Below are positions 7,086-34,599 of a stretch of DNA of 44,914 bases, piece by piece. Positions within the stretch are counted from its first letter, which is position 1. Each line of letters starts with the position of its first letter. The notes under the pieces are model-generated. The model did no database searches. It saw nothing but the letters and a program-made list of their open reading frames with translations, and had not been told where the DNA came from. The DNA comes from a virus: UHGV virus genome UHGV-0253772, one strand, 5' to 3'. The position numbers and the translations under genes were made by a program.

Positions 7086-7585
7086 TAATTAAACCTTACT
7101 TTTTGTTTAAGGACTGTTGAATGGTTACCAGATTCATCTACCACATTTACAATCATATCATATACTTTACCTTTGACAAGTACTTTGTAATCATTTTGTG
7201 AAAAAATGTATTCAAGTCTGTTTGTTTCTTTATTAACTATCATTGGAGATTGAAATGCAGTGTCGAGGGTAATGAAAGAGGCTTCAATGCTATTAACATT
7301 GATACGTTTATTCTCGCAGTTATATAACTTTACACCCAAAAGGCATGAACTGTCAAATGGAATTTTAACAATTTCACTACAATTTCCTGAAATAAACGAT
7401 TTTCCACTCATTGGTGCATCAAGTAACCTGCAAATAGTGAAAACGTCAGAGATTCCACCATCACTAACATAACCTGAAAGGCTGACCCTTGAGCCAGCCT
7501 CTACAGATAACTTATCAGTAATGATAAGGACACCTCTATACGAATGCACTCGTGTAGCATTTGAAATAGAGATAACTTCAGCCAT
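7085..7585 (-). CDS. hypothetical protein
   Basis: 166 aa ORF, ATG start overlapping portal stop (TAATG). Confidence 0.5.
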   Translation of the reverse strand: MAEVISISNATRVHSYRGVLIITDKLSVEAGSRVSLSGYVSDGGISDVFTICRLLDAPMSGKSFISGNCSEIVKIPFDSSCLLGVKLYNCENKRINVNSIEASFITLDTAFQSPMIVNKETNRLEYIFSQNDYKVLVKGKVYDMIVNVVDESGNHSTVLKQKVRFN

Positions 7586-9051: not shown

Positions 9052-9067
9052 TCTTCTCACCTAGCTA

Positions 9068-10669
9068 TCAACGTCTAAGCCCCTCATATGGGTTCCCTCT
9101 CACTAAGTCTGTGTGAGCACCCATTGATGGTGGCTTGAATAATTTAACTTCGTTAAGACTGTTGAAAGCATCACTGGTAGCATCCACTTGGTCATCTTTA
9201 GTTTTACCATCACCACAAAAGCCTTCAAGCTCTTGGAAGTAAGCTTCATTCCAGCTACCTCTCAAGACTTTTACAAGTCCAGCTTCAGAAGCAGCAGAAA
9301 ATCCCGCAAAGCGGGTAACTTTATCTTTATTTGTTGGTTTAGCTCTTGCGCGATAACCTTTCTCGGCAAGTTTCCTGATGAGGGATGTTGCATAGGATTT
9401 ACCAGCAGCGCCTGGGTCTTGAGGGATAAAAATACCAGTTCGCTTACCGTCACTTTCAGCAGTCAAATTAATTTGTGTTTCGACTCCAGAGGGTCTATCT
9501 CTAAATCTTACTACATCAATGATATAATAGCAACCGTCTTTTTTAGATTTACCCATCTTAACACCCGCTGTCCAGTCTGGGTTAGGGTTAATTTCAGATG
9601 GTAAAGTCGCTGCTAAGTCCCATGCTCTGACATCAAACACATCTTCTGGTAGTGAATCAACAATCTCACACCATTGTCTTTGCCAATAGTTTGAACCTTC
9701 TGCACGAGCCTTCCAGTTACCGAAACGAAGTCTTGCAACGTTTACAGGTGTGTTGTTTTCCAACTTACCACGATACTTAGGTTCCAAGAAGTCAAGAATT
9801 GGGTTATCATCAATCGTACCAGAGATGAAGGTGTATGTCTGAGGAATCTCAAGAGGGAACATTTCAAGAATCTTGTCTCTCTCCCAATCAGAAACCATCA
9901 CACCATCATTCATAACATACCAACGAATACGACCACATTTCTCAGGGTCTGGGTAACCTTCTTCATCTAAGAATGGCTCTACCCAATCATAAATGAAGTG
10001 GTCTCTATCTGGGTTCATAGAAATCTTCATGTATGAATCCCCTTCAGCACCAGAACGTAGACGGGTCTGTAGGTATGAAATCTGTGAAGCTGAGAAGTGT
10101 GTACCTTCGTCAAAGTAAATAGCTGAGTATTCAATACCCTGATGACCTTCAGCGTGCTTTTCAAGCTCTAAGTAGGTGAACTTAATAGTTGCCCCAGAAG
10201 GGAATGTGATAGTCATTTTCTGCTCGTGAGGAATCCCACCAAACTTACCAAATAGTTTCTTTGCAGCAGGCCATAAACCACCTTGTAACTGTGTTGTATT
10301 TCGACGGAAATATACAGCATTATAGTTAGGGTCTTCAATAAATCTTAAAGAGTCCATTAACAATGCAGCAGTTTTACCAGCACCAGCAGCACCACCATAT
10401 AAAACCAAGTCAGCATTAGTATTTAAAAACACCTCTTGAGAACCCGGTTGAGGGGCTACATAATTCTTATCAGTCATCAATTTGAAGATAAGTCTAACTT
10501 GGTCTGGTGTGTATCTTAATAAAGTCAGAATTTGAGTTGGAAGGAATTTAGAGGGGTCTTTACCGAATGATTTGATAATTTCTTTTACTTCATCAGAAAG
10601 CCCCAACTCTCCAGCTAGGACTTTCCTAACGTCTTCCACTCGCTTCTGCTTAACAGCATTTAAGTCCAT
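9068..10669 (-). CDS. terL: terminase large subunit
   Basis: Walker A motif YGGAAGAGKT, C-terminal nuclease-like acidic region; ATG at 10669 preceded by GGAGGTG; the ORF-track start at 10684 is a TTG. Confidence 0.85.
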   Translation of the reverse strand: MDLNAVKQKRVEDVRKVLAGELGLSDEVKEIIKSFGKDPSKFLPTQILTLLRYTPDQVRLIFKLMTDKNYVAPQPGSQEVFLNTNADLVLYGGAAGAGKTAALLMDSLRFIEDPNYNAVYFRRNTTQLQGGLWPAAKKLFGKFGGIPHEQKMTITFPSGATIKFTYLELEKHAEGHQGIEYSAIYFDEGTHFSASQISYLQTRLRSGAEGDSYMKISMNPDRDHFIYDWVEPFLDEEGYPDPEKCGRIRWYVMNDGVMVSDWERDKILEMFPLEIPQTYTFISGTIDDNPILDFLEPKYRGKLENNTPVNVARLRFGNWKARAEGSNYWQRQWCEIVDSLPEDVFDVRAWDLAATLPSEINPNPDWTAGVKMGKSKKDGCYYIIDVVRFRDRPSGVETQINLTAESDGKRTGIFIPQDPGAAGKSYATSLIRKLAEKGYRARAKPTNKDKVTRFAGFSAASEAGLVKVLRGSWNEAYFQELEGFCGDGKTKDDQVDATSDAFNSLNEVKLFKPPSMGAHTDLVRGNPYEGLRR

Positions 10670-10690
10670 TAAGCACCTCCGCAAATAGAA

Positions 10691-11113: not shown

Positions 11114-11189
11114 TGGAGAATCCGAAGGGACTCGAACCCTTATAAACCTGTTTTGCAGACAGGCACATAGCCATTTCTGTCACGGATTC
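11114..11189 (-). tRNA. tRNA-Cys (anticodon GCA)
   Basis: manual cloverleaf: 7 bp acceptor, T-loop GGTTCGAGTCC, anticodon loop cuGCAaa, CCA encoded. Confidence 0.65.
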
Positions 11190-11193
11190 AAAT

Positions 11194-11286
11194 TGGAGGA
11201 AGATACCAGACTTGAACTGGTACACCGATTTCTCAGTTACTGGCAGTTTAGCAAACTGCTCCCTTACCTTTTAGGGTTAATCTTCC
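11194..11286 (-). tRNA. tRNA-Ser (anticodon GCU), long variable arm
   Basis: 93 nt, T-loop GTTCAAGTC, anticodon loop ttGCTaa, long extra arm. Confidence 0.6.
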
Positions 11287-11287
11287 A

Positions 11288-12022
11288 TTATTTCTGTAAT
11301 GCGTTCTTCATTTCTGGTGTTGCAATAGTGTCAATCACACCAGTTTTACAAGCATCGTCAAACCAGTCTGGTAAGATACCTGCTAAGAACCCATTGATAT
11401 TCGTTTTAAGGTACTCTGCAATAAGGGCAGCTTCTTCTTCAATCATCTGCACAACTTCATCTGCATAAGCTGTAATCTTCGAAATACCTTCATTAATCTT
11501 ACTAACAGCTTGGTTAGCTAAATCAGAAATAGTATCAAGACCTTTGTCAATAGCATCTTGTAAGTCACTTAATACATCATTAACACCGTCTAGTGCACTG
11601 TTAATCATATCAATAGCTTTTTGACCATACTCTGTAGCAACACCCATAATACCACTAAATGGTGTACAACCGACTTGTTCACCTGCTGCACCCATAACAT
11701 TAGAATAACCTTTTGCTACCTGCATACGTGATGAAAACTCATCAATGGACTTTTGACCGTAATCCGTCAGCGTTTTGGTAGTTGATGTAGTACTTGTCAG
11801 ACTCGTTGTAAAGCTGTTAAGCAGAACTGTTGTAAGTCCAGCAGCAACAAGTTTATCCTTTATTGTAGGGTCTGTTACAGAGCTAATAGAGCTTACAAGT
11901 GATGTAGAGGCAGCTACGGTTCCACCGAGAACTGCTGCACCAGTAATAAGGGGATTAGAAAACCCTCTACCGGTTTTTAAGAGATTAAAAATCTCCTTAC
12001 CTTGTTCTGTCATCTCTTTCAT
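11288..12022 (-). CDS. hypothetical protein with N-terminal hydrophobic segment and helical C-terminal region
   Basis: ORF-track start at 12085 would overlap a tRNA; internal ATG at 12022 taken as start (244 aa). Confidence 0.5.
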   Translation of the reverse strand: MKEMTEQGKEIFNLLKTGRGFSNPLITGAAVLGGTVAASTSLVSSISSVTDPTIKDKLVAAGLTTVLLNSFTTSLTSTTSTTKTLTDYGQKSIDEFSSRMQVAKGYSNVMGAAGEQVGCTPFSGIMGVATEYGQKAIDMINSALDGVNDVLSDLQDAIDKGLDTISDLANQAVSKINEGISKITAYADEVVQMIEEEAALIAEYLKTNINGFLAGILPDWFDDACKTGVIDTIATPEMKNALQK

Positions 12023-12038
12023 TAAGCACCTTTGAAAT

Positions 12039-12115
12039 TGGTAGTCCAGTGGGATTTGAACCCTCTTCTCATGTTTTTCAGACACGCGCTTTAACCATAT
12101 AAGCTACTTGGACTA
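12039..12115 (-). tRNA. tRNA-Phe (anticodon GAA)
   Basis: T-loop GGTTCAAATCC, anticodon loop ctGAAaa; D-arm and acceptor pairing imperfect in manual fold. Confidence 0.5.
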
Positions 12116-12120
12116 TAAAT

Positions 12121-12196
12121 TGGGGTGACCTACGGGATTTGAACCCGTATAGACCATGTTCACAGCATGGGTCATTACCATTTATGATAAGGCCAC
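12121..12196 (-). tRNA. tRNA-His (anticodon GUG)
   Basis: acceptor 7 bp with one G-U, anticodon stem ccatg/catgg, loop ctGTGaa. Confidence 0.6.
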
Positions 12197-12227
12197 ATTT
12201 AAGGACTCTCGTAAGAACCCTTAGAAG

Positions 12228-12303
12228 TGGCAGCGGCATAAGGATTTGAACCTTAATAAGACAGCTTCAGAGACTGCTGCATTGCCAGTTATGCTATACC
12301 GCT
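12228..12303 (-). tRNA. tRNA-Gln (anticodon CUG)
   Basis: anticodon stem with two G-U pairs, loop ctCTGaa, T-loop TTCAAAT. Confidence 0.5.
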
Positions 12304-12308
12304 AAATT

Positions 12309-12388
12309 TGGTACTCCATATCGGATTCGAACCGATACATAACACAGATTTTAAGTCTGGCCTCTCTGCCAATTGGAGTAATGGAGCA
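12309..12388 (-). tRNA. tRNA-Leu (anticodon UAA), atypical short variable arm
   Basis: D-loop CAATTGGCAGA of type-II style, anticodon loop ctTAAaa, discriminator A, but only about 7 nt variable region; boundaries uncertain. Confidence 0.45.
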
Positions 12389-12389
12389 T

Positions 12390-12465
12390 TGGCGGGGGAT
12401 GTTGGAATTGAACCAACTTCTTCGATTTCAAAGACCGAGGTTTTAACCTTGTAAACTAATCCCCT
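12390..12465 (-). tRNA. tRNA-Gln (anticodon UUG)
   Basis: T-arm gttgg-TTCAATT-ccaac, anticodon stem tcggt/atcga, loop ctTTGaa. Confidence 0.6.
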
Positions 12466-12473
12466 TTAAATCT

Positions 12474-13031
12474 TTACTTTCTTAGTGGATGAATAAAGAA
12501 TGCCAACATAACTCTTTCCCTTGAGAATGCTCTTTCTTCTGGGACAACACTTTTTAGCTTCCACCCAATATAAATTCTCCAGTAAAACTGTTTACCAAAG
12601 ACTTTAATTGATGGGATAAAAGCGAATAATCCCCAAGCATTGCTGTTCCACATTAGGAGATAACCTGTCTGATTATCTTCAGGGTTAGAACTTACGTTGA
12701 TATTACCTTTCCACTTAGTAACATCTTTTACATCTCTTCCTAACACATGGTAAGAGAAGTTATAAGCTTTGTTTCTCCAGAGCCAACCAACTCTCTGCAT
12801 ATAGACACCAAGCTTACCAATCTTTCTAATCTTAGCCCATCGTTCGATATGACCTTCATCACCATCAATTGGGTTGTCATAAGTTTCCATCCATCTGAAC
12901 CCGAAAGGTAAGTGTCCTTTCTTCTCACTGTAGAATGGAACTACAAAAGGTGCTAAGATAACTGCTAAGATTGCTGCAAATGGCTCTAATAAAGCTAAGA
13001 AAATCCATGAAGCATACTTCAAATATCTCAT
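12474..13031 (-). CDS. hypothetical membrane protein
   Basis: 185 aa, N-terminal hydrophobic helices, W/Y-rich; ATG start. Confidence 0.5.
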   Translation of the reverse strand: MRYLKYASWIFLALLEPFAAILAVILAPFVVPFYSEKKGHLPFGFRWMETYDNPIDGDEGHIERWAKIRKIGKLGVYMQRVGWLWRNKAYNFSYHVLGRDVKDVTKWKGNINVSSNPEDNQTGYLLMWNSNAWGLFAFIPSIKVFGKQFYWRIYIGWKLKSVVPEERAFSRERVMLAFFIHPLRK

Positions 13032-13270
13032 TGTCTAATCCTAGTAAGGAGGTAAACATTATTATCTGTTTCTGAGTTTTCTGGTAAAGCTGTCTCAAAA
13101 TTGACGCTTTTAAATTGTCTCCCACCAAAGTAATGACCAATAAATTTTTGTACTTTTATTGGGTCACATTCCCAGCCGACTTTCAAGAAAATGTGGGTAT
13201 CTATAGTGGGAACCCTTACAAACTCAATACTATTGGAATTTTCATGTTCAACGACGATTAATGTTTGCAT
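13028..13270 (-). CDS. hypothetical protein
   Basis: 80 aa ORF, ATG start, overlaps downstream gene start by 4 nt. Confidence 0.45.
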   Translation of the reverse strand: MQTLIVVEHENSNSIEFVRVPTIDTHIFLKVGWECDPIKVQKFIGHYFGGRQFKSVNFETALPENSETDNNVYLLTRIRQ

Positions 13271-13288
13271 AAATCTCTCTTATTTATC

Positions 13289-13364
13289 TGGCGCAGGATA
13301 AGGGACTTGAACCCCTATTAACAGCTTCGTAGACTGTTGCTCTATCCATTTGAACTAATCCTGC
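13289..13364 (-). tRNA. tRNA-Arg (anticodon ACG)
   Basis: clean cloverleaf: acceptor gcaggat/atcctgc, anticodon stem acagt/gctgt, loop ctACGaa. Confidence 0.65.
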
Positions 13365-13479
13365 TTACCTACGAGAACACCATACAGTTTTTCACAAACT
13401 TTGCTTTTACGTCTGTTTAGATATGACGCTCTAAACTTTTTTTGCAATTGACTTATTACTCATAGTGTTCTCCTAAAAT

Positions 13480-13557
13480 TGGTGTTCCAAGACGGATTCG
13501 AACCGTCACTAGTACAAGGTTTGAGCTTGCATCCTCTGCCAATTGGGATACTGGAAC
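13480..13557 (-). tRNA. tRNA-Leu (anticodon CAA), atypical short variable arm
   Basis: D-loop CAATTGGCAGA, anticodon stem gcaag/cttgt, loop ctCAAac, discriminator A, about 6 nt variable region. Confidence 0.5.
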
Positions 13558-13558
13558 A

Positions 13559-13633
13559 TGGTACTCACTAAAGGACTTGAACCTTTTTCTTCATCTTGTA
13601 AGGGTGATGTTTTACCATATAAACTAAGCGAGT
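13559..13633 (-). tRNA. tRNA-Val (anticodon UAC)
   Basis: T-arm aaagg-TTCAAGT-ccttt, anticodon loop ctTACaa, one mismatch in anticodon stem. Confidence 0.5.
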
Positions 13634-13729
13634 GTGAAAGAGGTCTGAAGTTGTGCCACTAACTCAACTCCGTGGAATTTGTTACGGTCTTCAGTTGACT
13701 CAAAGTGGTCTTTCACTTGACCTCTGAAT

Positions 13730-13805
13730 TGGTGCTCCCACAAGGATTCGAACCCTGATAAGTTGCTTACAAGGCAACCGTAATAGCCAATTATACGATA
13801 GGAGC
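13730..13805 (-). tRNA. tRNA-Thr (anticodon UGU)
   Basis: anticodon stem gttgc/gcaac perfect, loop ctTGTaa, T-loop TTCGAAT. Confidence 0.65.
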
Positions 13806-13812
13806 ATTAATT

Positions 13813-13887
13813 TGGAGCATCCAGAGGGAATCGAACCCTCAACCTCAGTTTGGAAGACTGTAATTTTCCCGTTTAAACTATGGATGC
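13813..13887 (-). tRNA. tRNA-Gly (anticodon UCC)
   Basis: acceptor gcatcca/tggatgc, T-arm gaggg-TTCGATT-ccctc, loop ctTCCaa. Confidence 0.6.
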
Positions 13888-13893
13888 ACTAAT

Positions 13894-13969
13894 TGGTGGA
13901 GTCACTGAGAATTGAACTCAGTTCCCAAGTTTGCAAAACTCGAATTTTAACCATATAAACTATGACCCC
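13894..13969 (-). tRNA. tRNA-Ala (anticodon UGC)
   Basis: acceptor with G3-U70 pair typical of Ala identity, anticodon loop ttTGCaa. Confidence 0.6.
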
Positions 13970-13974
13970 AATTT

Positions 13975-14050
13975 TGGTACAGGTGGAGGGAATTGAACCC
14001 ATCGTCTTACTGATTAAGAGTCAGCCGCATAACCATTTTGCTACACCTGC
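13975..14050 (-). tRNA. tRNA-Lys (anticodon CUU)
   Basis: anticodon stem gctga/tcagt, loop ctCTTaa; T-stem only 3 clean pairs. Confidence 0.5.
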
Positions 14051-14057
14051 ATTAATT

Positions 14058-14134
14058 TGGTACACCTAGAGAGATTCGAACTCACACTGAGCAGATTCTA
14101 AGTCTGCTGCCTCTACCAATTGGGCTATAGGTGC
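14058..14134 (-). tRNA. tRNA-Leu (anticodon UAG), atypical short variable arm
   Basis: D-loop CAATTGGTAGA, anticodon stem gcaga/tctgc perfect, loop ctTAGaa, discriminator A, 5 nt variable region. Confidence 0.55.
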
Positions 14135-14377
14135 ATTAAATCTTTTTAGAGAACTTCTAAGAACCTAAGCAACAAGGTTCCACAACAAGCTGTAATAACC
14201 TTAGAAGCCCTCTAAAAAGACCTAATTTGGTCTTTGCATAGTCTTGTTTAATCCGGTGACTAGAACCTTTGGAGAGCTTGATATTATCTCTTCTCCGTGA
14301 CACCTACTAGGTGCTTTACTGTGCGTGTACGACAATACACGAGGGATAAACCGAAAATGCGAGCAAGCATGGACGGA

Positions 14378-14719
14378 TTAAATCTTTAAGCTAAGTTCAG
14401 TCTTAGACTTGACATCTTTAGCTTTGTAGATGACAACTTTATCAAGTGGTTCAATGTAAACAGCTAAGTAATCAACTTGAGAGTTATCAAAATTCATTAT
14501 TCTATTTTCATTCTTGTTAGAACGAACTCTTTTCAGTTGCACTCTCCAAAGTTCACCTCTTTTGACTGATGTTGATTTTACCTCAACAGTCTCAATCAAG
14601 CCATCTTTGTGGACTAGAAAGTCATACTTTGCATTATCTGTAGCTGGTGAATACACTTCATAACCTCTTTTGAGGAAAGCTAATTGTGTAGCAATTTCAC
14701 CTACTGAACCTTTCTTCAT
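14378..14719 (-). CDS. Hjc-like PD-(D/E)xK nuclease (Holliday-junction-resolvase-like fold)
   Basis: motif order GSxGE ... YDFLV ... IETVEVKS matches the E-D-ExK signature of Hjc-type nucleases; ATG at 14719 with AAGGTGA upstream; the ORF-track start at 14728 is a GTG. Confidence 0.45.
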   Translation of the reverse strand: MKKGSVGEIATQLAFLKRGYEVYSPATDNAKYDFLVHKDGLIETVEVKSTSVKRGELWRVQLKRVRSNKNENRIMNFDNSQVDYLAVYIEPLDKVVIYKAKDVKSKTELSLKI

Positions 14720-14740
14720 AATCATCACCTTAAATTATTT

Positions 14741-14827
14741 TGGCAGAGAGTGCAGGAGTTGAACCCGTACCGTTTCCAGCAGCACCAGTTTTCAAGGCTG
14801 GTTGGTCTCCGTTGACCGCCACTCTCT
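14741..14827 (-). tRNA. tRNA-Ser (anticodon UGA), long variable arm
   Basis: 87 nt, perfect 7 bp acceptor agagagt/actctct, loop ctTGAaa, extra arm present. Confidence 0.6.
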
Positions 14828-14831
14828 CCGA

Positions 14832-14902
14832 AACAATCTTTGGCAGGGGTGTAGAGATTCGAACTCTAATCAAGAATTTTGGAGACTCTATTGCTGCCAT
14901 AG
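14832..14902 (-). tRNA. tRNA-Trp (anticodon CCA)
   Basis: acceptor aggggtg/cacccct, T-arm tagag-TTCGAAT-ctcta, loop ctCCAaa. Confidence 0.6.
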
Positions 14903-15050
14903 CTCACCCCTATTAAAACTACAATTCGAAGCTTACCGTATTATCTCAACACTGTAAAGCCCCTTCTCAGATTATTTACATGTTCTGGAAAACATGAGAT
15001 ACAGACCACCTCCCTACAGGAAGACCCGCTTAGGTCGTCTAAGTAATCTG

Positions 15051-15127
15051 CTAACTAATTGGCACACCCTACAGGATTCGAACCTGTAACTAACGATTTA
15101 GAAGACCGTTGCTCTATCCAATTGAAC
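15051..15127 (-). tRNA. tRNA-Arg (anticodon UCU)
   Basis: T-arm acagg-TTCGAAT-cctgt perfect, anticodon loop ctTCTaa. Confidence 0.6.
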
Positions 15128-15473
15128 TAAGGGTGCATTAATCTTTAAAGACTCTCTTAGAAAGCCCTTAAAGATGCCCACCTTATTAATCATACCGTGG
15201 GCTAGTACGCCAAATTCTTTGATGAGGGATTGGAATACCTCACTGGTGTTTAGCCTATCAAGCTACTGCCAGAAAAACATTGTCGTTTGCATTTATTTTA
15301 AATTTGCAAAATAGACGCTACGCAACGAAAACTATTCAGAATATGTACAACAAATTTCCCCACATTGTGTTACGTCTAACGCTCATGTATTGGTGTTTGA
15401 ATTATACATATTATGAATTATTTTTAGTTACTATAAAGTAGTCACATCTTAATGTCAACAACTTTATTGAAAT

Positions 15474-15549
15474 TGGTACTGGTAGGTGGAATCGAACCAC
15501 CGATGTTCCCTTATCAGGGGAGTGTTATAACCTTCTTAACTATACCAGC
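15474..15549 (-). tRNA. tRNA-Ile (anticodon GAU)
   Basis: T-arm ggtgg-TTCGATT-ccacc, anticodon loop ctGATaa. Confidence 0.6.
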
Positions 15550-15550
15550 T

Positions 15551-15627
15551 TGGAGGTTCAGATGGGAATCGAACCCACATTCATAGGGCTTATGAAACCC
15601 CTGCATTACCTTATCTGCGACTGAACC
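15551..15627 (-). tRNA. tRNA-Met (anticodon CAU)
   Basis: anticodon stem with three consecutive G-C pairs, loop ttCATaa; cannot distinguish initiator, elongator or Ile2 by eye. Confidence 0.55.
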
Positions 15628-15705
15628 ATAATAAGTACCCTAGTTAGAGAAACTGTTGAGTGGGTGTTTCCAGCCGCGCAGGTGTTTCTCAGTTAAGGGT
15701 GAATT

Positions 15706-15781
15706 TGGTAGAAGTGGAGGGATTCGAACCCATCGCCTGTCAGATTAAAAGTCTGCCGCATCACCATTCTGCTACACTTCC
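15706..15781 (-). tRNA. tRNA-Lys (anticodon UUU)
   Basis: T-arm similar to the Lys(CUU) gene, anticodon loop ctTTTaa. Confidence 0.55.
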
Positions 15782-16239
15782 ATTAAATTATCTTTGTAGA
15801 TAAGCTACCCAGACTTGCTTAAGGTCTGTAGCGATGTGCCTTTTTGGGTTTAAATCTAGAATTTACCCTTTCACCCTTTGTGGTCGCATACTCACAGGTA
15901 AGCTTAATAACTTATCTACAAAGATAATTACCAGACCGTTGTTTATCATCTTAAGTGCTACCATTACACCAACTCGACATCTGCCGAGTGAAGGAATCGA
16001 ACCTTCGCCTTTTCTTTACCGGAGAAATAGATTGTTTAAGTTTTGCTGTAAACGGTCTTCTGTAAATTTGTTGAGCCAGACCAAGTTTTAAATTTTTTCA
16101 AAATTAAATTGGCTTGAAAATATCATACGTACTTGCTGAATTTGGTCTTCTGCTCCTTTAAAGAATACTCGTAAGAACTCTTTAAGGGAGGGGCTAAATA
16201 GCCCTCTCAAAACATCATTTTGAAATACTTATTATAATT

Positions 16240-16316
16240 TGGCGGCTACGATGAGACTTGAACTCACATCATCTCCCGTGACAGGGGAGTATTTTCTCCA
16301 GTTAAACTACATAGCC
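16240..16316 (-). tRNA. tRNA-Asp (anticodon GUC)
   Basis: anticodon stem ctccc/gggag perfect, loop ctGTCac. Confidence 0.6.
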
Positions 16317-16321
16317 TCTAT

Positions 16322-16409
16322 TGGTGTGCCGTGTAGGAGTCGAACCTACCGAGTCTCAATGACAAGGGATTTACAGTCCCCACCGCTACCATCTACGGGA
16401 TAACGACAC
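16322..16409 (-). tRNA. tRNA-Tyr (anticodon GUA), long variable arm
   Basis: 88 nt, T-arm gtagg-TTCGACT-cctac, loop ctGTAaa, extra arm. Confidence 0.6.
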
Positions 16410-16418
16410 ATTTTAATT

Positions 16419-16495
16419 TGGCGGTTAGTCAGGGATTCGAACCCTGTGCCATTCGCTTAACAGGCGACCGCACATACCTTATGTGCTTCCTAACC
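16419..16495 (-). tRNA. tRNA-Asn (anticodon GUU)
   Basis: T-arm caggg-TTCGAAT-ccctg, D-stem gcac/gtgc, loop ctGTTaa. Confidence 0.6.
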
Positions 16496-16571
16496 TTAAT
16501 ACATTACCAGACCGTGTTTTTCTTTTATCCGCAAAAAGTAGTTTGTTGCTGAATACGGTCTTCTGTAAAAT

Positions 16572-16648
16572 TGGAGGCGGGTGCAGGAGTCGAACCTGCC
16601 GATACCATGCTAATGAGACATGTGAGACGCCCTTTCTCTATACCCGCA
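16572..16648 (-). tRNA. tRNA-Met (anticodon CAU), second copy
   Basis: T-arm gcagg-TTCGACT-cctgc, anticodon stem catgt/gcatg, loop ctCATta; acceptor boundaries uncertain. Confidence 0.45.
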
Positions 16649-16739
16649 ATTCTTAATGACCAGACCAAATCTCTTCTTTGTCCGATTTACCTTCAGATGA
16701 ATAAGATTAAGTTTGCTGTAATTGGTCTTCTGTCAAAAC

Positions 16740-16817
16740 TGGCGTTCCAGAAGGGATTTGAACCCTCAGATATCCACTTTGAAAGAGTGGTGACTTTACC
16801 ATTTTGTCTACTGGAAC
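16740..16817 (-). tRNA. tRNA-Glu (anticodon UUC)
   Basis: acceptor gttccag/ctggaac, anticodon stem ccact/agtgg perfect, loop ctTTCaa. Confidence 0.6.
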
Positions 16818-16824
16818 ATTAATT

Positions 16825-16901
16825 TGGTCTCTGTTGGAGGACTTGAACCTCCGGCCTTACCGCCCCAAACGGAACGCTCTACCAAGCTGAGCTAAACAGA
16901 G
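16825..16901 (-). tRNA. tRNA-Pro (anticodon UGG)
   Basis: acceptor ctctgtt/aacagag, T-arm ggagg-TTCAAGT-cctcc, loop ttTGGgg. Confidence 0.55.
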
Positions 16902-26777: not shown

Positions 26778-27326
26778 ATGGAAAAAGATAACTTAAAAGA
26801 TGTTGAAGGTAACTACCTAGTACTTGACTGGAGTGATATCCGAGAAGCACTCTCCGAAGAAAGCCTTGACCTGCTAGAGCAACTTATCTTCTCAGTACGC
26901 CATACCAGAGGTATTGTAAATGGTAAAGAACCATTAGAAGGAATCTTTGTAGAGAAGTCTTATCCGTTCTATGAAGACACTTTACAGAAAGTTAAAATCT
27001 ACTTTAGACAGAAGAACCGTAAAGTGGTCACTATGGTATCTCTTGGTGGACAGAGTATGTCTGTGATGGAAGATATCAACCCTAAGAGACCGAGTAAAGG
27101 TGTTTGTATAAAAATCACAGGTCATGAAGAGTATATCTCAGTGGATGACTTTAGCTCATTCTGTAGTGGTTCTTGTGTCTTTAATGGTTTTCACTATGAT
27201 ATCCGAGTGTACCCAATCAAGGGAGATGATATCATGATGCAGGTATTCGATAATAACAATGGATTTACTCATTTTTATCAGACAACCAAGTCATCATTAA
27301 AAACAGTTCTTGAAACACTGATTTAA
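26778..27326 (+). CDS. hypothetical protein
   Basis: ATG at 26778 chosen to avoid a 43 nt overlap with the upstream gene; start uncertain. Confidence 0.45.
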   Translation: MEKDNLKDVEGNYLVLDWSDIREALSEESLDLLEQLIFSVRHTRGIVNGKEPLEGIFVEKSYPFYEDTLQKVKIYFRQKNRKVVTMVSLGGQSMSVMEDINPKRPSKGVCIKITGHEEYISVDDFSSFCSGSCVFNGFHYDIRVYPIKGDDIMMQVFDNNNGFTHFYQTTKSSLKTVLETLI

Positions 27327-27337
27327 AATATCTTAAG

Positions 27338-27370
27338 AGCCTCCTTAATCGGGGGCTTTTTAATTTTTAT
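27338..27370 (+). terminator. rho-independent terminator ending the plus-strand block
   Basis: hairpin AGCCTCC-ttaatc-GGGGGCT followed by a T-rich run. Confidence 0.55.
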
Positions 27371-27399
27371 AAAATTTTATCGGTTGTCCCAACCTCTGG

Positions 27400-28900
27400 G
27401 TCACCATCATATGTGAATAAGATATCTACCCTTCTTAATAGCCTTCTTAATCTTACTCTCTATATAGTTATATAGTACTATACAGTATCTTAGTAACTAT
27501 CTAGTGGTCTTAATAGCCCTCTGTATAGCCCTTCTAAACACTCTTCTAACAAGCCTTCTTAACAGCCTATACAATCACCTTAACCGTACCTCTACACCCT
27601 CTTAGAAGCCCCTATACACCTCTTAATCTCTATGTCAGCTATGATACCCTCTATATGTGTTCACTAGGGAATACTAAGCCTCTATATAGACTGTTTTAAC
27701 AAACTTAACAGGAATATCTTCACAGACCTTATCTCACAAGGTCTAACACGGTACTAACAAGGTATCTTATAAGCCTGTTTATGCCTGTATTTTTAAAAGA
27801 CTGTATAGGTAATTATTCAGAATTTTAAAATTTTTATAAAATAGGACTATCAAGTCATTTTTTAGGGTCTTTGAAGGAACTGAAAAATATCTGTAGAAGA
27901 TGTATATCTGCTTGGTAGCCCTTAACATCCCTGTAACATCCCCTTTGCAGAATTTTAAAATATCATTAACAATCTCTTAACAGCTATTACATTCTCTTAA
28001 CATCTCTTCAGAGGTCTTAACAGATTCTTAACAGAACTAACAAGGGTGTAACAAGTTCTTAACAGTCAATACATGGTCTTTATAGTTTCTTAACAGATGA
28101 CTAACAATAGCTAACAAGTTAATTTTTAAGAGTTATTTTGTAGGGATTGGTAACAATACCAATTAAGATAATTAACAAGTTTCTAACAAGTGTTTAATCT
28201 TTTTAACAAGCTATTAACATGGTCACTATCTCTTTTCTTATCATTCCCTTTCCCTCTTAGTGATTCTCTAAATAGCCCTCTTAAAAGCTCTCTATAGCTC
28301 CTTGTAAGCTCTTTTAAGCCTCTTCCTAGTAGTTACACCCCAACTGTACAGACACCTTTTTATAGGGCTTTACAGGGGCTTTAAAGGCTATGTCAAAGGT
28401 TCTTACAAGGCTTTTACGTGGTCTTAACAGAGATTTAACAAGGGGCTAACAAGTTGCTAACAAGTGCCTTAAAAGCATAACTATGTAGGGATTGTTAAGA
28501 AATTGTTAAGGGGGCTAGCATTTACGTAACTTTTAAGCTATCTATCACGTAACTTTGAAGTAACTTTATAGCCCCTATAACATACTTTTTAGTGACTATC
28601 AAGGGGATTGTTTAGTTATTCACAAGATACTAACGAGATAATAAAGCTCACACCCTTATAAGATTCTTTTAAGCCTCTATAAAGCCCTGTAAAGAGCTTT
28701 TAAGGGTGAGTTAATGCAATCCCTTAAGTTAGATTGATAAGGCTGTTATAGCGCTTTATAGAGCGTTTAAGTGGGCCATCCCCTTTCTGGGGTTATTGGC
28801 TTATATTTAAGTTGATTTGATAAAAGGCTATAGAGTAGACTATAGAGTTATTGCTTTTAAGGTCTGATAAGATTCTGAAAAGGTGAGGAAAGGGATTGTA
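27400..28900. repeat. ORF-free region dense in short TAACA(A/G)-type motifs and other short direct repeats
   Basis: no ORF of 60 aa or more on either strand; roughly 30 copies of cTTAACAG / cTAACAAG-like motifs, clustered at 27960-28230 and 28420-28465. Confidence 0.6.
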
Positions 28901-28918
28901 TAAGGATTGGATAGACGT

Positions 28919-28940
28919 AAAAAAGCCCCTGTGAGGGGCT
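28919..28940 (-). terminator. rho-independent terminator ending the minus-strand small-gene array
   Basis: minus-strand hairpin AGCCCCUCACAGGGGCU followed by U6. Confidence 0.6.
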
Positions 28941-28980
28941 GTATAAAGGTATCTGGGGCTATTTAGCCCCGTTGCGTCGA

Positions 28981-29229
28981 TTAGTTGTAACCTTGTTTAT
29001 TGTAGTACAGTGAGACAATCAAGTCACCCCAGTAATGATAGTGATGCTCATCGTTTAATGCCTCTTTTACAGCGTCTTTCCAGAAGTCATCAGTAGGGTT
29101 ATAATCTGGGATAACTTGCTTGATAACTGTCTTCACTAATGAAAAGCATTCATCAGTTCCACCGATATCAAATTTAACGTCCAGAGTATAACAGCCATAA
29201 GCATTGACAGTTGCGCGGATAGTTGCCAT
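28981..29229 (-). CDS. hypothetical small protein
   Basis: 82 aa; ATG preceded by the conserved type A cassette with GGAGA RBS. Confidence 0.55.
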   Translation of the reverse strand: MATIRATVNAYGCYTLDVKFDIGGTDECFSLVKTVIKQVIPDYNPTDDFWKDAVKEALNDEHHYHYWGDLIVSLYYNKQGYN

Positions 29230-29303
29230 TTTCAGAATCTCCTAGTTTAAGGACTTTATTTAGTGGGGAAGGTCATTCCCTCCCCGTTGATTAGTAATTT
29301 ACT
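29230..29303 (-). repeat. intergenic cassette repeat, type A (copy 1)
   Basis: conserved gaatctccagtttaggac...tttagtggggaaggtcattccctccccgttgatt core with hairpin. Confidence 0.7.
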
Positions 29304-29562
29304 GCATGTTGGCGTATGTTGCAAGCCTTTTTTCGTTGTATTTTGTCAGAATCTCACAAGATAAAACATCATATTTTGTAACCGCTTTGCCTTTGTCGAG
29401 GTCAAAGAATCCGAACGCTTTACCGTCTTTGAATCCGACAACTTCGTAAGATTCTTTAACGATTTCACCATTGAACAAATCGCTTTCGATGCGGTGAAAC
29501 AGTGCTACGTCTTCTTTGTCAGTTGCAATTTGTAAAAGTGTGGTCAGCTCGACGTGTTCCAT
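29299..29562 (-). CDS. hypothetical small protein
   Basis: 87 aa; start defined by type A cassette. Confidence 0.55.
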   Translation of the reverse strand: MEHVELTTLLQIATDKEDVALFHRIESDLFNGEIVKESYEVVGFKDGKAFGFFDLDKGKAVTKYDVLSCEILTKYNEKRLATYANMQ

Positions 29563-29632
29563 TTCGAATCTCCAGTTTAGGATTTTATTTAGTGGGGAAG
29601 GTCATTCCCTCCCCGTTGATTGACAATTTACA
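29563..29632 (-). repeat. intergenic cassette repeat, type A (copy 2)
   Basis: same conserved core; spans stop of upstream gene to ATG of downstream gene. Confidence 0.7.
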
Positions 29633-30158
29633 GATTTTTGATTGTCTCGTCAATGTCTTTTTCAATATCTTTTAAAGTTTTTTCTAAGTTCTTGATATTG
29701 AACGTTAAACCTTCTCCCAGTGTCTTAGAGTAACCGCTAGGACGTAAATCATAAAGCTCGATTTCTTCCACTAGAGAAAGGTTAACAGCCCAGCCACCTA
29801 TGCCGTAGGCCATTGAAACGGTATTTACAGGGGCTTTATAGAACTTGTTCAAGGACTTGATAGAACGTTCATAAGCCATTTTATAACCATTTAAAAGGTT
29901 TTTAACGTGGTTGTGAACGTTTTTACAATCATCTAAGTAAAGACCTAAAAACATCGGGAGAAGTTCCGCGACAGCTTGCATAAAGTGAGAGACTACAACG
30001 GTGGAAACATTGCGACGATGGACGTAATAAGCCCCGTTTTCTGATTTGGTAATGGTTGCAAAGTGTACACCATTGCAACGAAATTCATAGGTATCTTTAA
30101 CAGGCTTTGACATTACAGCATTTGAACGAATGAAGTTGATAGCTTGAAATTTGTTCAT
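29628..30158 (-). CDS. hypothetical protein
   Basis: 176 aa ORF, start defined by cassette. Confidence 0.55.
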   Translation of the reverse strand: MNKFQAINFIRSNAVMSKPVKDTYEFRCNGVHFATITKSENGAYYVHRRNVSTVVVSHFMQAVAELLPMFLGLYLDDCKNVHNHVKNLLNGYKMAYERSIKSLNKFYKAPVNTVSMAYGIGGWAVNLSLVEEIELYDLRPSGYSKTLGEGLTFNIKNLEKTLKDIEKDIDETIKNL

Positions 30159-30228
30159 TTTAGAATCTCCAGTTTAGGACTTTATTTAGTGGGGAGGTTA
30201 TTGCCTTCCCGTTGATTAGTAATTTACT
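30159..30228 (-). repeat. intergenic cassette repeat, type A variant (copy 3)
   Basis: variant hairpin ggggaggttattgccttccc. Confidence 0.65.
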
Positions 30229-30377
30229 TGTTTTGATAGCTGATTGCAAGCAATTTTTTAAGTTTATCTATAAAGAATCTTTTAAGTGAATCCCTTTTAG
30301 ATAAACCCCCTCGAACAAATGTACTATTGTCAAGGGGTATCGTCAAGTAATTTTTTAAAGTTTTTATAAGTTATTGA

Positions 30378-30719
30378 TTAACTGATGAATATTTTTTCAG
30401 GCTTTACATAGCTGATACGCTGACTTTTTAGCAGGTCATCCCAGATTAGCGCGGCAATATGAGAATAGCCGGATTCACGTAAAAGTTTCATTGTTTTACT
30501 TCTCGTCTCAAAGCGGCTTGCGTAGTATTCACTGTTCAAGGTTGTTTTATTCCCTTCGTTGTCTGTATGGATGATTTGCATCACTTGAAAGGGGCTTACA
30601 TCCTCACCTTTGTTCCACTGCTCAAAGTATTTTAGGCACTGCATAGGTGATATCTTATCACTTACTTGAGTTGACCAAGATGAACCCTCTTTATCAGTAA
30701 TTACAGTTACATAAGCCAT
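30378..30719 (-). CDS. hypothetical protein
   Basis: 113 aa ORF. Confidence 0.55.
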   Translation of the reverse strand: MAYVTVITDKEGSSWSTQVSDKISPMQCLKYFEQWNKGEDVSPFQVMQIIHTDNEGNKTTLNSEYYASRFETRSKTMKLLRESGYSHIAALIWDDLLKSQRISYVKPEKIFIS

Positions 30720-30792
30720 TTTAGAATCTCCAGTTTAGGACTTTATTTAGTGGGGAAGGTCATTCCCTCCCCGTTGATTGACAATTTACAGA
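30720..30792 (-). repeat. intergenic cassette repeat, type A (copy 4)
   Basis: conserved core. Confidence 0.7.
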
Positions 30793-30808
30793 TTTTTATC
30801 AGGCTTGT

Positions 30809-31042
30809 CTAGTCTTTTTCAATGATAATTTCATACTGACCATCTACGCTGTCAAAATAGACACCATCTTCATCTTCTGTCTTAAAGTAGCATTGAATAT
30901 CATCACTGGCGGGATAGTCTTGTCTTGCTATCTGGCAAACTTGAATAGCATTTTCTTTACTCCCTGTAAACTCCTCAAGCCCTTTAAAATCACATGAATG
31001 ACCATTACAAATAGAAAGGATAAGATAAACGGTTGTAAGCAT
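30809..31042 (-). CDS. hypothetical small protein with N-terminal hydrophobic/signal-like segment
   Basis: 77 aa; the only array gene without a cassette immediately upstream. Confidence 0.45.
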   Translation of the reverse strand: MLTTVYLILSICNGHSCDFKGLEEFTGSKENAIQVCQIARQDYPASDDIQCYFKTEDEDGVYFDSVDGQYEIIIEKD

Positions 31043-31105
31043 GATTTAAGCCCTTTAAATGGCCCTGTATGGGCCTTAAGTTGGAAGTTGGTGTCTTTGT
31101 ACTGA

Positions 31106-31669
31106 TTAACCTAAAAAGTCTTTTAAATTGCGCTCTGTGATGTTTGCCGTGATTTTATCCAACAAGTCACAAAACACGGAACTATCACCGCTATTCTGTA
31201 CAATTTTCGCCATACTTAACAAATCATCGTCAACATAGCCTAAATTGCGGTTAGTTGCATCTGGTACAAAGAAAGGTGCATACATCGCACTAAATTTCGT
31301 CGAGTGAAGGCCAATAATCCAACCTTTATCAAAGTGTCCGGTAAAGCTGGCGATATCACTCATGTTGTCACAAGAATAATCATCCTCTAGCTCTTCCTCT
31401 GGGATATCCATCTCAATGACAATTACGTCCTGCGTTTCCATTTGGAAAGCTGCCGTAATAAGCCCAGATTCTAAAGCGTTTTGAATGCAGCGTTCACGAA
31501 TGTAAGAATCTTCCTCATCTTCCAGACATTCCGTTTTGATAATCTTGTTCATTGGGTAAACGTAGAAACAATCATCCATGTATGAGCAGTTCCAGATTCC
31601 TTCCGGCTTGTCGCCACCATTCAGCAGGTTTACAAAGTTTTTGATGGTAGTTCCGTGATAGCATTTCAT
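31106..31669 (-). CDS. hypothetical acidic protein
   Basis: 187 aa, D/E-rich. Confidence 0.55.
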   Translation of the reverse strand: MKCYHGTTIKNFVNLLNGGDKPEGIWNCSYMDDCFYVYPMNKIIKTECLEDEEDSYIRERCIQNALESGLITAAFQMETQDVIVIEMDIPEEELEDDYSCDNMSDIASFTGHFDKGWIIGLHSTKFSAMYAPFFVPDATNRNLGYVDDDLLSMAKIVQNSGDSSVFCDLLDKITANITERNLKDFLG

Positions 31670-31762
31670 TTTTGAATCTCCAGTTTAGGATTTAGTGGTA
31701 AAGCTCTTTATCTGGGGCTTAAGATACCAACTTTTTAAGCCCCTTGTAAAGTACTTTATTAC
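31670..31762 (-). repeat. intergenic cassette repeat, type B (copy 1)
   Basis: shares RBS-proximal core with type A but carries GGGGCTTAAG...CTTAAGCCCC hairpin plus ttgtaaagtactttat. Confidence 0.7.
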
Positions 31763-31960
31763 TTAATTTTTGACAACTTTTAAAACTGCAAGATAACCTA
31801 AGCAATAAGAATCACCGAAGAGAGTTCTACCCATGAAAGAATCCTCTTTGATATCCTTTGCAGTGACAGTTTTTTCTACGCCGTGGGAAAGGACTACATC
31901 ACCAACTTTGATATCTTTGATGTGTGTTGTTTCAATGGTTAAGCCGTTAATAATAGCCAT
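31763..31960 (-). CDS. hypothetical small protein
   Basis: 65 aa ORF. Confidence 0.45.
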   Translation of the reverse strand: MAIINGLTIETTHIKDIKVGDVVLSHGVEKTVTAKDIKEDSFMGRTLFGDSYCLGYLAVLKVVKN

Positions 31961-32030
31961 TTTAGAATCTCCTAGTTTAAGGACTTTATTTAGTAGGGAG
32001 GTTATTGCCTCCCCGTTGATGAGTAATTTA
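31961..32030 (-). repeat. intergenic cassette repeat, type A variant (copy 5)
   Basis: conserved core with variant hairpin. Confidence 0.65.
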
Positions 32031-32060
32031 ATCTATCTAAAAATCAGTGTCAACATCTTT

Positions 32061-32465
32061 TTAAAGTTCTGCGTAGATTGCATCACAGACATCACGGAAA
32101 TCATGATTTGTTAAGTTACGTTGTAACCAAGTGGCAAAGAAATCAGCGATTGCAAAATTAGCGTCATACTCGACGGATAGCCACACTTTAACAGCAAATC
32201 GGAACATCTTTAAATCAAGCTCTTTATTCATTACCTTTGATTTGCCTAACATGTCGGCCATCTCATGTTGTGCACCGTCTAGCGTGATACCGGCTGCAAC
32301 GTCAGCCAATGAGTTTTTTACGCTTTCAACGTCTAAGATAATACTTTGAATCTTCCCAATAATGTTTTGCAGTGTTTCATCTGGTGCTGATGATGTGATA
32401 ACATTAATCCGGTTGACGGTCAAACGTGCTTTTAAGATAGATAACTCACGATTATTAATAGCCAT
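32061..32465 (-). CDS. hypothetical protein
   Basis: 134 aa ORF. Confidence 0.55.
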   Translation of the reverse strand: MAINNRELSILKARLTVNRINVITSSAPDETLQNIIGKIQSIILDVESVKNSLADVAAGITLDGAQHEMADMLGKSKVMNKELDLKMFRFAVKVWLSVEYDANFAIADFFATWLQRNLTNHDFRDVCDAIYAEL

Positions 32466-32553
32466 TTTTGAATCTCCAATTTAGGATTTAGTGGTAAAGC
32501 TCTTTATCTGGGGCTTACTTTATCGAACTATAAGCCCCTTGTAAAGTACTTTA
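32466..32553 (-). repeat. intergenic cassette repeat, type B (copy 2)
   Basis: GGGGCTTA...TAAGCCCC hairpin variant. Confidence 0.7.
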
Positions 32554-32823
32554 TGCTAAATGCAGCTTTTTGCCTTTTACTATGATGTAACTTGATGCGC
32601 TATTGCCGCATACATCTTGATAAATTCTACGCAAACGGCCTTCGTAGTATACTTTCCAGCTAGTTGGAATCTTTTTCCCGTATCCGGTAGCAGTTTTTTG
32701 GAATCCTGCAAGTTGCCAATCCAAAATGTGCTGTTCAGCTTGTAAATCCTCGAAGTGCATTACACCGTTTACATAGTGGCGTAGGGTTACGTTTAAGGTG
32801 CGACCGTTGTTAGTAGTGTACAT
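32551..32823 (-). CDS. hypothetical protein
   Basis: 90 aa ORF. Confidence 0.5.
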   Translation of the reverse strand: MYTTNNGRTLNVTLRHYVNGVMHFEDLQAEQHILDWQLAGFQKTATGYGKKIPTSWKVYYEGRLRRIYQDVCGNSASSYIIVKGKKLHLA

Positions 32824-32897
32824 TTTTGAATCTCCTAGTTTAAGGACTTTACTTAGTGGGGAAGGTCATTCCCTCCCCGTTGATTAGTAATTTACTT
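32824..32897 (-). repeat. intergenic cassette repeat, type A (copy 6)
   Basis: conserved core. Confidence 0.7.
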
Positions 32898-32913
32898 GTT
32901 TTTAAAACTAAAA

Positions 32914-33246
32914 TCAAGAGAAATTTTTTCGTTTGTTCAGTTCTTGGACAATTACAGTGTAATAGTCTTTTAAGTCACTGATATTTAAAGCATTTATCAG
33001 AGAGTTATAATCATCGACAAGCTGAAAATTATCTTTGAAAATGTCGCTGATTTGATAAGTTTTTGATTGAAATCTGAAGCTCATTTCTAACCGTTTTATT
33101 TGTTCATCACTTAAACGCTCCAGAAAGCTCATTACAAGGCTATTATTAACCTGTTGCGTGATTGCCTTACTTGCCAAATTATATGCGCTATAAGCCTTGT
33201 ACAGTGCTATAATGGCAATGATTGCAGTGATACCCATCATTAACAT
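32914..33246 (-). CDS. hypothetical membrane-anchored protein
   Basis: 110 aa, N-terminal TM helix, start overlaps upstream gene end. Confidence 0.5.
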   Translation of the reverse strand: MLMMGITAIIAIIALYKAYSAYNLASKAITQQVNNSLVMSFLERLSDEQIKRLEMSFRFQSKTYQISDIFKDNFQLVDDYNSLINALNISDLKDYYTVIVQELNKRKNFS

Positions 33247-33536
33247 GGTGCTTCCTCTTTACGTGATACTTTGCCATTTAAAGTTATCTCATAAGACTCT
33301 AGTAAATCACTTTCAGACTTAACAGGACTTTTACAAGTATCATCATAAACATTAATTTGCAATACAGGCTTTTTATACTCCCTGCAACTATTCCATAAGC
33401 AAATCACTACACGACGGCCTTTTATTTTGCCGTGTAACCATTCCATAACCTCATGAGTATTTCTTGAGGTCTCGATAAAATCGATTTTGTTGAGTAACTT
33501 GCTTAGATTTTCCCTAACTTTATTTGATAATTTCAT
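33240..33536 (-). CDS. hypothetical protein
   Basis: 98 aa ORF. Confidence 0.5.
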   Translation of the reverse strand: MKLSNKVRENLSKLLNKIDFIETSRNTHEVMEWLHGKIKGRRVVICLWNSCREYKKPVLQINVYDDTCKSPVKSESDLLESYEITLNGKVSRKEEAPC

Positions 33537-33627
33537 TTTTGAATCTCCAGTTTAGGATTTAGTGGTAAAGCTCTTTATCTGGGGCTTAAGATATCAGCTT
33601 TTAAGCCCCTTGTAAAGTACTTTATCA
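33537..33627 (-). repeat. intergenic cassette repeat, type B (copy 3)
   Basis: conserved core with GGGGCTTAAG hairpin. Confidence 0.7.
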
Positions 33628-33882
33628 GATTAAATTGCCAGTTAATGATAAGTGCATTTTATAGCCTTTTTTGGTAAAAACGTTCACTTTACCCAGTGTT
33701 TTTACACCTTTAAAAAGGTTGTTTGAACTGCGTTTTAAAGTTAACTGCTTATCAACCTTCACGCCCCACCTTACAGCAGATTGTTTCCCGTTGTCAATCA
33801 CTTTCCCGCATAACTTTTTAGCCATGTTGCGAGCGTCATCACGAGTCTTTGTAGTAATTACAACGTTTTTGATAATAGCCAT
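33625..33882 (-). CDS. hypothetical basic protein
   Basis: start moved to the ATG at 33882 that follows the cassette RBS; 85 aa. Confidence 0.5.
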   Translation of the reverse strand: MAIIKNVVITTKTRDDARNMAKKLCGKVIDNGKQSAVRWGVKVDKQLTLKRSSNNLFKGVKTLGKVNVFTKKGYKMHLSLTGNLI

Positions 33883-33972
33883 TTTTAAGTTCTCCAATTT
33901 AGGATTGAGTGGTAAAGCTCTTTATCTGGGGCTTACTTTATCGAACTATAAGCCCCTTGTAAAGTACTTTAT
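33883..33972 (-). repeat. intergenic cassette repeat, type B (copy 4)
   Basis: conserved core. Confidence 0.7.
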
Positions 33973-34352
33973 TTGTTAATTTTGAAGATAGTTACATAAC
34001 CATCGCTGCCGATGATTTGTGATGCTCCAGCTTTTTCTACTTGATAGCCCATATTTTCAAGATGATAAACAGCATCATCATAACCATATGCGCCGCCTTG
34101 ATAACGTCTCTTATCACATCTTACTAATACCTTTCCACGTCCAGCAAGTGCATTTAGTACAGCTTTTTCACTTGAAAGTGTACCATCTAACATGGTTGCC
34201 GTGTAATGGTTGATTCTATTCCCGTTTACATCATACTTAAAATTGAATGCGTGAACAACGATAATGTTACCTTTAAAATTTTCATCAAGTGACTTCTCCA
34301 GTGCGTTGCGAAAGTTGTCTTTGTTGATGAATTTAGGTGCACGGTATTTCAT
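33969..34352 (-). CDS. hypothetical protein
   Basis: 127 aa ORF. Confidence 0.55.
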   Translation of the reverse strand: MKYRAPKFINKDNFRNALEKSLDENFKGNIIVVHAFNFKYDVNGNRINHYTATMLDGTLSSEKAVLNALAGRGKVLVRCDKRRYQGGAYGYDDAVYHLENMGYQVEKAGASQIIGSDGYVTIFKINK

Positions 34353-34412
34353 TTTTGAATCTCCAGTTTAGGACTTTATTTAGTGGGGAAGGTTATTCCC
34401 TCCCCGTTGATG
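34353..34412 (-). repeat. intergenic cassette repeat, type A (copy 7, most upstream)
   Basis: conserved core; truncated upstream part. Confidence 0.65.
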
Positions 34413-34599
34413 CAAATACTAGGTAACCACGTTCAAAGAGTCAAGAAAAATTTTAAAAATATTTTTAGCAAAACTGTAATGAAACGGGCGCACACGACTA
34501 CCACAAAACAGAACTATAATCAAGAATTATTTTTCAATCCGCTACAAATTTTTCTGTTGACTTTTATTTCCAGATGTGGTAGCCTTGTGAGAAATGGCG

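Follow-up and report, generated by a model that had tools for sequence, protein, structure and literature searches.

A non-coding, repeat-dense region of a Felixounavirus genome as a concatemer junction with converging arrays of putative packaging recognition sites

Introduction

The virus genome UHGV-0253772 raises the question of what is served by about 1.5 kb of DNA that holds no sizeable ORF and is crowded with short repeats. This region lies at positions 27371-28918 of the window, by which we mean the whole 44,914-nt stretch of DNA that was analyzed, and all coordinates below refer to the window. An earlier reading made from the sequence alone (the original prediction) described the region as free of ORFs, dense in repeats, and enclosed by inward-facing terminators, and it named several identities that the region could have: an iteron-type replication origin, a packaging or terminus region, a protein-binding array, and a structured non-coding RNA. 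Here we report the repeat content of the region, its flanks, its conservation in relatives, and its relation to the genome ends of those relatives, and we ask which of these identities fits best.

Results

No ORF of 60 aa or more is present on either strand of 27371-28918, in agreement with the original prediction, and the longest ORFs found on the two strands are 49, 35, and 33 aa. The pentamer TAACA occurs 29 times on the plus strand of the region versus 3 times on the minus strand, and 16 copies of TAACA fall within 27960-28230, where about 15 motif copies had been reported. Set against shuffled composition, a check that the original prediction had suggested, the excess of the 29 copies is evident: 1,000 dinucleotide-preserving shuffles give a mean of 2.97 copies (sd 1.67) and a maximum of 9. 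Adjacent TAACA pairs exactly 11 bp apart are found 12 times, compared with 0.007 in the shuffles. Other short motifs also exceed expectation in 27371-28918, including CT.TA.AG (16 versus 1.2), TCTTAA (13 versus 1.8), and TATAG (13 versus 4.4). No other 300-nt stretch of the 44.9-kb window contains five or more copies of TAACA.

The region is bounded on both sides by terminators. A terminator scan places one intrinsic terminator at 27335-27360 on the plus strand, where it closes the rightward gene cluster ending at 27326, and another at 28924-28940 on the minus strand, where it closes the leftward gene cluster ending at 28981. These terminator-like hairpins, read as 27335-27360 (+) and 28940-28924 (-), face inward as had been described. 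AYO145A and Michonne carry a terminator annotation at the site equivalent to the first, and AYO145A, Barry, and Michonne at the site equivalent to the second. In all relatives, the region is flanked by the same pair of convergent clusters, whose small genes are of unknown function. Elsewhere in the window, along the minus strand of 29215-34430, at least seven copies of an intergenic cassette of about 60-75 nt stand ahead of successive small genes; each has a GC-rich hairpin (GGGGAGGGAATGACCTTCCCC), after which come a Shine-Dalgarno sequence and ATG, and the cassettes resemble a repeated module of the 5' leader or terminator type. In addition, the whole 44.9-kb window (1-44914) is devoid of GATC, so that the Dam/MboI-type site is completely avoided.

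Phage records matching the region number about 260, with identities of 75-93%, and nearly all of them are Felixounavirus or Mooglevirus. Judged by its sequence, the window is a Felixounavirus, that is, a Felix O1-like myovirus of the subfamily Ounavirinae. Some of the matching records call for a comment on their own account. The phage vB_EcoM_I14.1 (GenBank PP892526) is filed under Tequintavirus, and its sequence is that of a Felixounavirus. The 147-kb record named 'Staphylococcus phage SA1' (GU169904) includes a Felixounavirus region, which suggests that this record is chimeric.

Because several GenBank records were found to end inside the region, record ends were compared for identity, and three independent records stood out. 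The two ends of a record are 100% identical over 591 bp in ZX4221, over 581 bp in vB_EcoM_I14.1, and over 592 bp in ECP2307, and in all three cases they map to window positions 27914 and 28515. These close relatives carry the same sequence at both ends of their linear DNA, and the interval 27914-28515 is the single-copy equivalent (602 bp) of this direct terminal repeat (DTR). The boundaries are fixed and non-permuted in the relatives: both positions are shared by three records, and breaks at the equivalent of 27914 or 28515 are seen in at least seven others, whether records or contigs (REP10, Seyj1-1, NBEco004, NJ12, MET-P1-301, NBSal004, and one metagenomic contig). The identical 77-bp record ends of REP10 were considered as a true DTR and judged to be an assembler overlap; the break point of this record still corresponds to the right boundary. 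In a metagenomic contig (IMGVR_UViG_3300045988_004931), the last ~200 nt are a scrambled tandem reiteration of right-boundary units, probably an assembly artifact arising from the physical end and the 11-bp repeats.

The exact terminal repeats of three relatives at 27914-28515, together with experimental work on UAB_Phi87, bear out the packaging or terminus alternative of the original prediction. In UAB_Phi87, a DTR of 608 bp was determined by Bal31 digestion and run-off sequencing (PMC4837284), compared with 614 bp for the equivalent of 27914-28515 by our alignment. A DTR of 613 bp was determined with PhageTerm in Ro111lw (PMC6454146), and DTRs were reported with PhageTerm for Philippine isolates including I14.1 (PMC11737134). 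Homology and this literature together show that 27914-28515 should be present once per genome unit in concatemers and twice, as an exact DTR, in packaged DNA. The single copy in the window is as expected, because assembly collapses the two copies. From relatives that are 85-93% identical, we infer that the termini of this phage lie at about 27914 and 28515. By homology, the region as a whole is a concatemer junction, composed of a left arm (27371-27913, 543 bp), the DTR (27914-28515), and a right arm (28516-28918, 403 bp).

The DTR contains 22 (Y)TAACA(R) cores between 27923 and 28462, all on the plus strand and mostly in an 11-bp register, and over 22 relatives the commonest spacing of adjacent cores is by far 11 bp (245 cases). 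A 22-nt segment at 28141-28162 inside this DTR is missing from most relatives. The left end of the DTR at 27914 reads GGTAGCCCTTAACA..., and the right end at 28515 reads ...TGTTAAGGGGGC. Reading of the sequence identifies inverted TGTTAAG units on the minus strand at 28493-28515, again in an 11-bp register, which end at the right boundary; 2 units are present here and 2-4 in relatives, and this variation, like that in the 22-nt segment, makes for DTRs of different length. Read inward, the right end is GCCCCCTTAACA, an imperfect mirror of the left end. Through this flip of orientation at the right boundary, both physical ends, read inward, begin with the same sequence, G(C)CCC(C)TTAACA, and continue with further TAACA units. 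The recorded DTR boundaries are not symmetric within the inverted boundary motif.

The unique arms on either side of the DTR carry arrays of their own. The left arm (27371-27913), which in the mature genome adjoins the right-end DTR copy on its inner side, contains CCTTCT(T)AA / AGCCCTCT-type repeats in a register of about 12 bp at roughly 27420-27630, along with TATAG palindromes, 6 TAACA cores, and a block at 27700-27913 that is AT-rich and near-invariant. The right arm (28516-28918), which lies just inside the left-end DTR copy, shows three (AC)GTAACTTTNAAG units at 28516-28572, directly past the boundary, and its TTAAG-type motifs are mostly oriented opposite to those of the left arm. CTTAA/TCTAA motifs are found 10 times on the plus strand and once on the minus strand in the left arm, versus once on the plus strand and 8 times on the minus strand in the right arm, and this opposite strand bias indicates that the arm arrays converge on the DTR. 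The right arm also contains an inverted repeat (28668-28692 / 28746-28770) and a small two-tier hairpin (28773-28799), of which relatives show two haplotypes that differ by compensatory stem changes (GCCA/TGGC versus GCCC/GGGC).

We compared the conservation of these elements with that of the flanking genes. Over 22 distinct Felixounavirus sequences, conservation is 0.92-0.98 in the left arm and 78-96% in the DTR, compared with 0.73-0.82 at the third codon positions of flanking genes (four genes with at least 13 aligned sequences), and the non-coding region is under strong constraint. The TAACA cores are conserved at 0.98 versus 0.88 for the other DTR positions (p=1.5e-8, 22 relatives), and 19-23 copies of TAACA are kept in relatives despite a DTR length that varies from 569 to 658 bp. 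Both DTR boundary sequences are invariant in the 22 Felixounavirus sequences and conserved in Mooglevirus and Suspvirus. The region as a whole is about 75% identical to Mooglevirus, and long invariant blocks, both boundary sequences included, are shared with Mooglevirus and SUSP1 (Suspvirus); the 82-aa protein encoded next to it shares only about 50% identity with the corresponding proteins of Moogle and phiSUSP1.

The layout also recurs in Erwinia phage M7 (Kolesnikvirus). Its DTR, 444 bp long, can scarcely be aligned with that of this phage, apart from one segment of about 120 nt that spans a boundary at 72% identity. The DTR boundaries of M7 are homologous and lie 3 nt further out on each side. 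M7 is nevertheless enriched in the same motifs, with 16 copies of GTTAAGA versus 0.15 expected and 11 copies of TTCTAA versus 0.9 expected, and after reorientation its arm motifs converge on the DTR as they do in this phage. The arm motifs point toward the DTR in all four genera, namely Felixounavirus, Mooglevirus, Suspvirus, and the Kolesnikvirus of M7. That motif type, orientation, and position are kept without the intervening sequence argues for protein-binding sites.

Discussion

We consider it likely, with a probability of about 0.8, that the region is a concatemer junction and that its arrays are putative sites for terminase or a specificity factor. In the mechanism that we propose, the arrays would be bound by the packaging machinery, and terminase or the specificity factor would find the junction there. 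The candidate sites are the TAACA cores in their 11-bp register, the converging CTTAA/TCTAA-type arm motifs, and the near-invariant boundary blocks. Terminase would cut at the two conserved boundary sequences, and the DTR would become duplicated in the course of packaging, following the model put forward for T7-type phages. With an 11-bp register, neighboring sites would share one helical face, an arrangement suited to cooperative binding head to tail. The protein-binding array of the original prediction is compatible with such a terminus, and as far as indirect evidence goes it is supported by the 11-bp phasing, by cores that are more conserved than their spacers, and by a layout found in four genera. 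An array can be conserved without each of its units being essential, and a further role in origin function, end protection, or transcription may exist beside packaging.

The large terminase subunit, TerL, is encoded at 9068-10684 on the minus strand (phrog_979, E=1e-233) and the portal protein at 7585-9060 on the same strand, and both genes lie directly downstream of a cluster of 27 tRNAs (11114-16901). No small terminase is recognizable beside TerL, and the tRNA cluster is directly upstream of it. That TerL directly follows the tRNA cluster is also stated in the Felix O1 paper and in the UAB_Phi87 paper (PMC4837284), and the TerL of UAB_Phi87 was placed in a separate 'Felix O1-like DTR' clade (PMC4837284). 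A bolder version of the packaging reading, which is rather unlikely, is that the TAACA and arm arrays form a nucleoprotein 'telomere/junction' bound by a dedicated Ounavirinae protein that replaces the small terminase and perhaps also acts in end protection or replication priming. If this were true, it would mean that a dedicated junction protein system is conserved over at least four genera, with a mode of recognition distinct from the lambda, P1, and T7 models.

Other readings account for part of the same evidence. In an iteron-type origin, the phased repeats would bind an initiator and the AT-rich DNA at 27800-27850 would unwind, and such an origin could exist alongside the terminus. Direct repeats in helical register, a block of 82% A+T at 27800-27849, and strongly conserved non-coding DNA are what this reading would predict. 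However, the region coincides with mapped genome ends and lies between converging transcription units. Each of the two DnaA-like boxes has one mismatch, neither is conserved in Mooglevirus, and no IHF consensus is present. No initiator is recognizable either: Pfam and PHROG scans of six flanking proteins for DNA-binding or initiator functions found no Pfam family, and the PHROG families matched are all of unknown function. Of what an iteron origin would comprise, tandem repeats and an AT-rich block are present here, whereas a recognizable initiator gene and conserved host-factor sites are not. The GC-skew turn, which the original prediction had offered as a check, coincides with the switch in gene orientation and is uninformative about an origin, and there is no meaningful Chi signal. 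The iteron origin of the original prediction is improbable on these grounds. The TAACA repeats at both ends could instead be coated by a virion or early protein, which would shield the ends from host exonuclease or defense systems, or organize them for ejection or concatemer formation. The shared inward start of both ends, with its G(C)CCC(C)TTAACA followed by TAACA units, would suit this role, the 11-bp register would suit a protein filament, and Bas63, a related phage, is suggested by the PhageMaP authors to be without a RecBCD inhibitor (the PhageMaP knockout library of Bas63 targeted genes only). However, conservation is just as high in the arm arrays outside the DTR, which favors junction recognition over end capping. 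We regard end coating of this kind as quite improbable.

Transcription of the region, as a structured non-coding RNA or from a promoter cluster between the terminators, is very doubtful. There are sigma-70-like hexamer pairs, such as TTAACA-N16-TATAGT at 28059-28086, but the 13 promoter-like sites are no excess over the 10.4 in shuffles, the strongest of them falls in the part of the region with the least conservation, and no promoter is conserved. The hairpin at 28773-28799 with its compensatory haplotypes and the folding z-scores of 28651-28800 (-3.5 on the plus strand and -2.7 on the minus strand) would be consistent with an RNA; this modest right-arm signal is, however, present on both strands, as expected from DNA inverted repeats, and sliding-window z-scores on both strands show no folding signal over the DTR or the left arm. 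An Rfam search of 26800-29400 (E<=1) returned two chance-level matches, the better at E=0.26. The family or covarying fold, together with a promoter, that would mark a structured non-coding RNA was not found in the region, and this part of the original prediction loses its footing. A literature search on Felixounavirus transcriptomics returned nothing relevant. Small proteins, which the original prediction had named as the alternative outcome, are almost certainly not what the region encodes. ORFs of 33-49 aa are present, and some GenBank records annotate CDSs ('hypothetical proteins') there, but in most of the 22 relatives all three are disrupted by loss of the start codon, by in-frame stops, or by frameshifts.

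The junction reading is in part a return to known ground. The DTR of Felix O1-like phages is already published and deposited, so that the region's identity is not new. The motif arrays, the 11-bp phasing, the converging arms, and the mirrored boundary are not described in the papers on Felix O1, wV8, VpaE1, Michonne, and UAB_Phi87, and the dense oriented arrays seem never to have been described before. This internal anatomy is a modest addition, which leaves the current understanding of phage biology unchanged, and it offers a testable lead for understanding site recognition by a terminase for which no small subunit is known. In practical terms, ends at ~27914 and 28515 give the correct genome orientation and annotation, and the junction explains why many Felixounavirus assemblies break here or carry spurious 'hypothetical proteins'. 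The candidate recognition sites are of use in packaging studies and in the engineering of Felix O1-type phages for therapy or diagnostics.

The DTRs of the Felix O1-like phages UAB_Phi87, Ro111lw, ZX4221, I14.1, and ECP2307 are the same element as the one described here, with 85-93% identity, identical boundaries, and the same flanking genes. Nothing of substance separates them from the DTR of this phage, which is 602 bp long, has the 22-nt insertion at 28141-28162, and has only two TGTTAAG units. Among better-known systems, iteron origins and R1 parC-type centromeres, in which tandem 11-bp repeats are bound cooperatively, are similar in having direct repeats in helical register (11 bp here). 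They differ in that no initiator or partition gene is recognizable next to the region, the phage is lytic, and the array lies inside a mapped DTR. In the R sites of lambda cosB and the hexamer repeats of P1 pac, short repeats flanking the terminase cut are the recognition element, and by analogy the several short repeats that flank the cut site here may act in the same way. Unlike lambda cos and P1 pac, which go with cohesive ends or headful packaging and an identified small subunit, this phage has exact-repeat ends, no recognizable small subunit, and far more sites.

T7 offers a further comparison and a precedent for arrays of this kind. Its junction processing includes a transcription-coupled step, and since we know of no T7-type RNA polymerase in Felix O1-like phages, this step is unlikely to apply here. 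The two phages also differ in that CCTAAAG is spaced at 13 bp in T7 and TAACA at 11 bp here, the DTR is about four times longer here, both arms carry arrays here and these converge on the repeat, and this phage is a myovirus whose TerL would, by the literature on UAB_Phi87, belong to a different clade. In T7, the sensitive positions are at the repeat boundary, and the initial 340 bp at the left end contain 11 one-way copies of CCTAAAG, located inside the 160-bp repeat and next to it, largely at 13-bp spacing. T7 and this phage have in common a short exact DTR and a one-way short motif that is repeated in a regular register inside and beside it.
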